Shown: one piece after another, positions 20,872 to 21,216 of the stretch
Layout of the letters: each line of letters begins with the position of its first letter
Numbering within the stretch: position 1 is the stretch's first letter
IMG/VR virus record: IMGVR_UViG_3300028533_000484
Location: 76,447-140,446 of that record
Reading direction: 5' to 3' (one strand)
DNA length: 64,000 bases
From: a virus
Lineage: Duplodnaviria > Caudoviricetes
Notes under the pieces: model-generated
The model's input: only the letters and a program-made list of their open reading frames with translations
Database searches by the model: none
What the model was told of the DNA's origin: nothing
Position numbers and translations under genes: made by a program

Positions 20872-20894
20872 AAAAACGAGTTAAGGAATATAAT

Positions 20895-20918
20895 ATGAAG
20901 AAGAAACAGAGGCCTTAA
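20895..20918 (+). CDS. uORF MKKKQRP upstream of three tRNA-Lys genes
   Basis: SD AAGGA; ATG AAG AAG AAA CAG AGG CCT TAA; stop at the base of a long hairpin. Confidence 0.5.
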   Translation: MKKKQRP

Positions 20919-20983
20919 CTTTCTGTTCAAGTCCATTGGAATAGAAAGTGGCCAGATTAAATGGAAACACAATTTATTTTAAT

Positions 20984-21060
20984 GGACCGTTAGCTCAGTC
21001 TGGGTTAAGAGCAATGCCCTTTTAAGGCGTGGGTCGTGAGTTCGAATCTCACACGGTTCA
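20984..21060 (+). tRNA. tRNA-Lys(TTT)
   Basis: ATGCC-CTTTTAA-GGCGT. Confidence 0.92.
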
Positions 21061-21065
21061 ACCTT

Positions 21066-21140
21066 CTACCCGTGACGCAGTCTGGTTAGCGTACAAAACT
21101 TTTAATTTTGGGGTCGTGAGTTCGAATCTCACCGGGTAGA
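21066..21140 (+). tRNA. tRNA-Lys(TTT), second divergent copy
   Basis: CAAAA-CTTTTAA-TTTTG. Confidence 0.88.
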
Positions 21141-21144
21141 CTAC

Positions 21145-21216
21145 CCGCTTATAACTCAACGGTAGAGTGGCGAACTCTTAATTCGCAGGTTCTCAGTTCA
21201 AATCTGAGTAGGCGGA
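21145..21216 (+). tRNA. tRNA-Lys(CTT)
   Basis: GCGAA-CTCTTAA-TTCGC. Confidence 0.9.

Follow-up and report, generated by a model that had tools for sequence, protein, structure and literature searches.

A conserved two-state leader precedes the tRNA-Lys clusters of related large phages

In a phage tRNA array, a cluster of tRNA-Lys genes is preceded by a leader RNA element whose reality and conservation we regard as highly probable, along with the pairing of one of its helices, B, to the 5′ end of the first tRNA-Lys. Seventeen distinct sequences of related large phages share the conserved leader, which rules out chance. It combines a lysine-rich mini-ORF with two helices that compete for the same nucleotides and, even on a minimal reading, adds to the tRNA arrays of jumbo gut phages a cis-RNA motif that is new, conserved and bistable. 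The arrangement suggests, without proving, that maturation of tRNA-Lys is tied to the reading of Lys codons. We know of no tRNA gene under leader-peptide control and of no natural switch at an RNase P site. If true, this would be the first natural leader-peptide sensing wired to tRNA maturation.

Layout and distribution of the leader

The stretch analysed here, hereafter the window, is the terminal 64 kb of a 140,446-bp IMG/VR virus record and has a G+C content of 33%. The CheckV estimate puts the record at about 35% of the genome; the window is thus only part of a very large phage. Its genes include divergent T4-like functions, and ARAGORN detects 27 tRNA genes at 15.9-22.9 kb. The leader and the tRNA genes on either side of it lie on the plus strand. 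The upstream neighbour of the leader is a tRNA-Ile(UAU) gene (20799-20871; ARAGORN), which with 33.8 bits has the lowest Rfam tRNA score of the array. A spacer of 111 nt separates it from tRNA-Lys(UUU) no. 1, placed at 20984-21060 by Rfam (62.3 bits) and at 20983-21063 by ARAGORN. This gene has no encoded CCA; it measures 81 nt and has a 12-nt D-loop. Both programs also find tRNA-Lys(UUU) no. 2 (21066-21141) and tRNA-Lys(CUU) no. 3 (21145-21217). Between the tRNA genes, an SD-like AAGGA (20883-20887) lies 7 nt 5′ of the ATG at 20895 that opens the mini-ORF ATG AAG AAG AAA CAG AGG CCT TAA (MKKKQRP*; 20895-20918). The SD, the ORF, the following hairpin and the three tRNA-Lys genes are all located where the first-pass annotation had placed them, and its remark that no terminator U-tract is present was correct: neither a U-tract nor a terminator-like site follows the hairpin anywhere in 20872-20990. 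A promoter within the leader is likewise unsupported. What lies downstream of the leader are tRNA genes, with no ribosome binding site or ORF of a protein gene. An Rfam scan of 15000-24000 returned nothing but tRNAs in the leader stretch and no T-box match. A 246-aa endonuclease-like ORF (19742-20482) with similarity to PHROG endonuclease families and, weakly, to Phage_endo_I is embedded in the tRNA array, and DUF559 endonuclease genes reside inside the arrays of relatives.

Relatives were not found by direct searches. In the GenBank phage collection there was no close relative at the DNA level, the best topoisomerase match being 34% identical, and IMG/VR scans with two single window proteins gave no match. 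Exact patterns run against IMG/VR (the tRNA D-arm, the tandem T-arms, the hairpin plus GGACCG) were too strict, as was a mini-ORF pattern in which codon 7 was fixed as SCT. The portal protein retrieved a graded series of homologues from Logan and ENA assemblies. Among these portal-based relatives, L001 and L002 end before the Lys cluster, and L004 and L005 have no array at this place. The two latter contigs, whose portal is about 80% identical, carry flagellin and spirochaete-type FlaA-like genes at the position of the tRNA array (L004:3507-5658, L005:3488-5597); MCP-signal chemoreceptor and LRR_5 proteins were noticed in other relatives. A 216-aa protein encoded downstream of the array led to contigs carrying tRNA-Lys clusters, and further contigs together with two pattern scans yielded the 17 distinct sequences. 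Within IMG/VR, the 10 contigs matched by a hairpin pattern are also those, and the only ones, matched by an independent mini-ORF pattern. Three of the four metagenome pattern matches (L014-L016) were taken as chance because they lack a tRNA.

The first-pass annotation had named its own test, a Lys-rich uORF conserved ahead of tRNA-Lys among related phages, and this is borne out in 17 distinct sequences. In all cases tRNA-Lys(UUU) begins 89-95 nt after the ATG of the mini-ORF, and three to five Lys tRNAs follow. The leader occurs behind at least four different upstream neighbours and adjoins at least four different tRNA-Lys bodies, all of which start with GGAC or GGGC. One such body, third in the cluster of L011, comes first in L019 and L032. 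The arrays run to dozens of tRNAs, and tRNA-Lys is the only kind that the leader precedes. The tRNA that follows it in L017 (1332-1403) is degenerate, with an odd T-loop, and was missed by ARAGORN; the leader of this contig is intact. Several tRNA-Lys genes of 83-88 nt possess a class-II-like long variable arm, unusual for tRNA-Lys (L011:4801-4884, L019:3268-3352, L018:3438-3525 and the clusters of L037 and L039).

One carrier of the element, L029 (JAZNWZ010000130.1, 306 kb), was binned in a MAG of Candidatus Fimenecus (Clostridia). The element was also seen on IMG/VR contigs of 300-386 kb and on one metagenome contig of 403 kb. These records suggest jumbo phages of gut-dwelling Bacillota, unless the binning is wrong.

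Alternative helices at the 5′ end of tRNA-Lys

Hairpin R starts with the last A of the mini-ORF stop codon. Its core pairs ACTTTCTGTTC (20918-20928) with GAATAGAAAGT (20939-20949) in 11 bp, one of them G-U, around a 10-nt loop. A 4-bp extension, R-ext (GGCC 20911-14 with GGCC 20950-53), is set off from the core by a 3-nt bulge consisting of the third base of codon 7 and the TA of the stop. Helix B, which belongs to the minimum free energy (MFE) structure, joins GTCCATTGGAATAGA (20931-45) and TTTATTTTAATGGAC (20973-87) in an uninterrupted run of 15 bp. It spans the predicted RNase P cleavage site and nucleotides G1-C4 of tRNA-Lys no. 1. As 20939-45 are common to both, R and B are mutually exclusive. 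The first-pass annotation had noticed the complementarity between GTCCATT in the loop region and AATGGAC at the start of the tRNA; this pairing is real and was understated.

Comparison of the related sequences supports both helices. The R core is 94.7% paired and contains two double changes. Together with its extension, 95.7% of the cells are paired and three pairs are changed on both sides, compared with 33-53% pairing in slid controls; the extension itself covaries from GGCC/GGCC to GGGC/GCCC. Helix B comprises 15-20 bp with G-U pairs, is A/U-rich and continues into the tRNA. Of its cells, 96.9% are paired; two pairs have changed on both sides and five on one, and the slid controls reach 24-59%. 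In its 3′ arm, 8 of 11 leader columns vary and pairing is kept. Hence the alternative pairing to the tRNA 5′ end that had been proposed from the single sequence now has covariation support, and compensatory changes back the competing hairpin as well. Complementarity to the tRNA junction of this length arose in 3 of 20,000 shuffled window spacers. Position 20943, shared by R and B, changes from A to T. In the L011 clade a compensating change restores the pair in B, and in L023 and L007 the pair in R has been restored too. Such two-step compensation suggests that both folds matter. Independent covariation events are few, because most double changes sit on the branch between two clades.

A possible third helix, Z, would pair nucleotides 9-11 and 15-18 of the mini-ORF with the 5′ arm of R (20903-05 and 20909-12 with 20919-22 and 20926-28) and place the stop codon in its loop. 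It is 88% paired, has no compensatory change and some disruptive ones, and appears both in the RNAalifold consensus and in the window MFE. The loop of helix B (20954-20972) holds an invariant motif, CCAG-N-A.ATGGAA, that no helix tested explains. An SD-sequestering helix A (20878-86 with 20913-21) from the window MFE was dropped, as it is not homologous in the other contexts.

Folding energies place the two states close together and assign them to different stages of transcription. Computed without a prior, the RNAalifold consensus consists of Z and B, with R as the alternative. In constrained folds the R state and the B state lie 0-9.5 kcal/mol apart, and the difference is 0.0 in the window. 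R is the MFE structure of every transcript that ends before B is complete: as the window transcript grows, R remains the MFE until the end reaches 20980, and B takes over at 20986. The direct path from R to B meets a barrier of about 11 kcal/mol. Equilibrium folding with simple ribosome masks gave B for a stalled and for a terminating ribosome alike.

A covariance model revealed divergent copies of the leader directly before tRNA-Lys(CUU) in L007 and L008. Both keep R, R-ext and B. The L007 copy has ACG in place of ATG and retains two AAA triplets; the L008 copy reads ATG-TAA, and CAA occupies the canonical stop position. Thus the ORF can be lost and the helices retained.

The mini-ORF and the small-protein family behind it

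In L011, a 55-aa ORF (4374-4541) ends in seven codons that correspond to the window's uORF. Behind it come the hairpin, GTCCATTGGAAT...AATGGAC and tRNA-Lys, as in the window. By sequence comparison, the mini-ORF is homologous to the last seven codons of this conserved protein. The protein family comprises 43 clusters with the consensus MDCGAPR.EGP.AKK.YEY...EKRKKRLEEF..MKKKQR[PA]. Its members (P0125-P0167, from L011, L013, L017-L023 and L025-L028) measure 51-60 aa, contain 22% Lys, are encoded inside tRNA arrays and have no Pfam or PHROG match. The gene is usually located before the Lys cluster. In L025-28 it stands before tRNA-Leu, and neither mini-ORF nor hairpin is found there.

The mini-ORF itself occurs in three contexts. 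It is fused in frame to the C-terminus of the 55-aa protein in L011, L013, L017, L023 and L039. It forms a separate ORF just past the stop of the protein in L018 (TAAcATG) and L019 (TAAggttATG). In the window, L029-31 and L034-37 it stands alone behind another tRNA and is equipped with AAAGG or AAGGA. The upstream neighbours of these stand-alone copies are tRNA-Ile, tRNA-Met, tRNA-Cys or an unassigned stretch downstream of tRNA-Val. An AAGG(A) is always present in this context, with the GG at -9 to -12 and a spacer to the ATG that differs, and such an SD-like 4-mer has a background frequency of 7-12%.

The window has retained a remnant of the protein, eight in-frame codons (KKRVKEYN, 20871-20894) ahead of the mini-ORF; the N-terminal ~45 codons are missing. 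KKRVKEYNMKKKQRP in the window matches the tails of P0142-P0146, which are 60-aa variants. When the 43 members were compared with the contig by tblastn, the sole match was genome 97317-97361 (window 20871-20915), where 12-13 aa align with the P0142-P0146 variants at 77-92% identity. A full-length ORF with the MDCGAPR.EGP..YEY N-terminus is absent from the 140-kb contig, which is about 35% of the genome. The truncated ORF directly adjoins the low-scoring tRNA-Ile(UAU), and truncation and tRNA-Ile may therefore be linked.

Across the 17 distinct sequences, ATG and TAA are invariant and the mini-ORF spans 24 nt without indels. Variable columns number 0/3 in the ATG, 2/9 among the Lys-codon bases and 0/3 in the stop, as against 28/36 in the tRNA body. 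Three tandem Lys codons (AAR AAG AAA) precede the tRNA-Lys genes, and two do so in the L023 lineage. Codon 3 is AAG and codon 4 AAA throughout the main clade, except in one lineage of four protein clusters that reads K-E-K; in one cluster the stop is read through. Invariant in all 17 sequences, yet in no supported helix, are the ATG, A4, A5, A8, A12 and C13. Other unpaired stretches vary, namely 8 of 19 positions in the loop of B and, freely, the spacer between SD and ATG. Among shuffled window spacers, an ORF of at most 12 codons with SD, ATG and at least three Lys codons appeared in 62 of 20,000. We infer from these sequence patterns that the mini-ORF is translated. Variation at codon 7 is not evidence of coding: Pro alternates with Ala because the RNA partner covaries, and the third base varies freely because it sits in the bulge. 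The three Lys codons could have been inherited from the tail of the 22%-Lys protein rather than selected. A second ATG (20961, METQFILMDR*) was rejected as leader ORF, as it lacks an SD and conservation of its reading frame.

A possible ribosome-read switch, its alternatives and known systems

The reading we tentatively prefer, although we would not give it an even chance, is a Lys-sensing switch: a leader read by the ribosome that controls maturation of tRNA-Lys and not termination of transcription. The leader would be a conserved cis-acting element of the tRNA-Lys cluster with the layout of a trp-type attenuator. Region 1 would lie within the mini-ORF, region 2 would be the 5′ arm of R, region 3 the 3′ arm of R and at the same time the 5′ arm of B, and region 4 the tRNA leader plus G1-C4. 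In place of the terminator, B would act as a sequestrator of the tRNA 5′ end. R would fold first on the nascent RNA and leave the tRNA leader single-stranded, as RNase P needs. Once transcribed, B, which is equal or better thermodynamically, would bury the cleavage site and the first four nucleotides of the acceptor stem. A ribosome terminating at TAA would cover the 5′ arm of R, set its 3′ arm free for B and thereby hold back the tRNA. A ribosome slowed on Lys codons 2-4, for example because a host nuclease depletes Lys-tRNA, would end before R, so that R persists and the phage tRNA-Lys is released. The model requires kinetic control, because the masked equilibrium folds do not separate the stalled from the terminating case. 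Within it, Lys as the signal, a change in RNase P cleavage and the direction of control are inferred. That the phage thereby senses a loss of Lys-tRNA, caused for instance by PrrC-, PARIS- or Schlafen-type nucleases, and unmasks the RNase P site of its own tRNA-Lys is a further step that we consider rather unlikely.

The interpretation offered by the first-pass annotation, a Lys-sensing switch acting on tRNA folding or processing, thus stands in part. Conservation and both helices speak for it. Against it, the uORF turned out to be homologous to the tail of a protein, the signal at codon 7 is explained by RNA pairing, and L007 and L008 have no ORF. These last observations sustain the strongest alternative, only somewhat less probable than the switch, an RNA element that works independently of ribosomes. 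In this case R and B would fold, order or process the tRNA-Lys precursor, for example as an RNase III-type stalk or by a timed release of the first tRNA, and the mini-ORF would be an inherited protein tail whose bases are kept for RNA-level reasons. L007 and L008, which maintain R, R-ext and B but not the start or the stop, agree with this explanation, and so do the homology of the ORF to the C-terminus of the MDCGAPR family and the stem and bulge that account for the variation at codon 7. Moreover, parts of codons 3-6 can pair in helix Z, and L007 has two AAA triplets despite the lack of an ATG. However, pairing does not explain the invariance of the helix-free ATG, A4, A5, A8, A12 and C13. 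An SD at optimal spacing is found exactly where independent initiation would be needed, and the stop codon always falls at the base of R. In addition, one would expect a helix over the RNase P site to impede processing if it were not under control (PMC7897497).

It is improbable that the mini-ORF is translated and matters without being a Lys sensor. Any ribosome would then remodel R and B or protect the transcript, release of tRNA-Lys would be tied to general translation capacity, and the Lys codons would reflect efficient initiation (MKK starts) or history. Conservation of SD, ATG and stop and the geometry with the stop at the hairpin fit this possibility equally well, and the K-E-K sequence is tolerated in a lineage that has diversified into four protein clusters. 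On the other hand, codons 3 (AAG) and 4 (AAA) are invariant in the main clade outside that lineage, and the leader is only ever seen before tRNA-Lys. Recent horizontal spread without an own function, as a co-conversion tract of a homing endonuclease or a mobile cassette, or mere chance is very improbable: homing-endonuclease-like genes (DUF559, Phage_endo_I-like) are indeed frequent in these tRNA arrays and the leader is more conserved than the flanking tRNAs, but compensatory substitutions in three helices, where pairs are hardly ever broken without compensation, a 3′ arm of B that varies in most columns and still pairs, and the rarity of comparable pairings and ORFs among the shuffled window spacers argue against it.

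The Lys-sensing switch invites comparison with trp-type attenuators. Like the trpL, hisL, pheL and pheST leaders, the element has a short ORF that is preceded by an SD and whose tandem codons match the product under control. Successive helices (a possible 1:2, then 2:3 and 3:4) exclude each other, the choice of fold would be kinetic and co-transcriptional, and the stop is placed such that a terminating ribosome would mask region 2. In contrast to these attenuators, the 3:4 helix has no U-tract, contains the 5′ end of a tRNA and is not an intrinsic terminator; because of this, we do not count the leader as a member of the leader-peptide attenuator family. Further differences are the regulated genes, which are tRNAs instead of biosynthetic enzymes or a synthetase, the length of the ORF (7 codons) and a 1:2 helix without covariation support. 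Translational attenuation of the ermC/cat type does not apply, as the genes downstream encode tRNAs and offer neither an RBS nor an ORF. With T-boxes the element shares that it would be a cis-acting leader reporting the tRNA status of one amino acid in Bacillota-associated genomes. Unlike them, it has no Stem I, specifier loop or T-box sequence, and T-boxes control mRNAs of synthetases or transporters, not tRNA genes.

The closest parallel for the output is a theophylline-dependent RNase P riboswitch (Ender et al., NAR 2021, PMC7897497), in which a hairpin in the 5′ leader gates RNase P. In this synthetic switch, sequestration of the tRNA 5′ leader blocks the enzyme, and its authors, who knew of no natural case, note that no riboswitch had yet been shown to control access to the cleavage site directly (PMC7897497). 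The theophylline switch is engineered and driven by a ligand, whereas the phage leader is natural and its proposed trigger is a ribosome on the mini-ORF. Helix B, moreover, also invades four base pairs of the acceptor stem. In the literature we found no leader-ORF control of tRNA genes, and neither an Rfam family nor a paper describes the element.

Why phages carry tRNAs is an old question, whose answers have recently been shifting towards counter-defence, with tRNA-Lys in a central position. The first-pass annotation had pointed out that tRNA-Lys is the target of an anticodon nuclease, and this is documented: PrrC and PARIS deplete the cell of tRNA-Lys, and a phage-encoded tRNA-Lys restores infection (PMC10264068, PMC11464382). 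T5, with its tRNA-Lys directed against PARIS, and T4, which repairs PrrC-cut tRNA-Lys, resemble the phages studied here in that they invest in the supply of tRNA-Lys. Each of the latter has three to five tRNA-Lys copies, and relatives also carry RtcB. For the T5 and T4 cases, in contrast, no leader ORF or structural switch has been described, and any nuclease link is conjectural here. If a sensor preceded the tRNA-Lys genes of the phage itself, the counter-defence idea could be tested directly on an RNA of 110 nt. RtcB is absent from the 140-kb contig of the window, about 35% of the genome; a 409-aa ORF of the window was considered as the RtcB of the relatives and rejected, as it is not that protein. 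In L008, the rtcB gene (12436-14772) contains an intein.

The first-pass annotation had also counted the leader as the third member of one system with leaders before tRNA-Tyr and tRNA-Ile. Such a grouping is conjectural; the Tyr and Ile leaders have long ORFs and true terminators. An arrangement comparable to these was seen in two relatives, where a 33-aa ORF (MFFTVNKNTNSTTKHFNTTTMFFNKKHNYLVES) with AAAGGAG is followed by a strong intrinsic terminator (L007:4666-4830 and L008:4524-4690). The array behind it reads Lys-Lys-Thr-Asn-Ala-Thr-His-Asn-Lys-Met-Thr, and the peptide is rich in the amino acids of these downstream tRNAs, a bias that AT-rich composition could partly explain. The 33-aa ORF resembles the leader ORFs MTKTFVT... 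and MKNFVT... of the window, which likewise come with terminators and precede tRNA-Tyr and tRNA-Ile; the corresponding leader regions of the window are 16305-16474 and 16671-16868.
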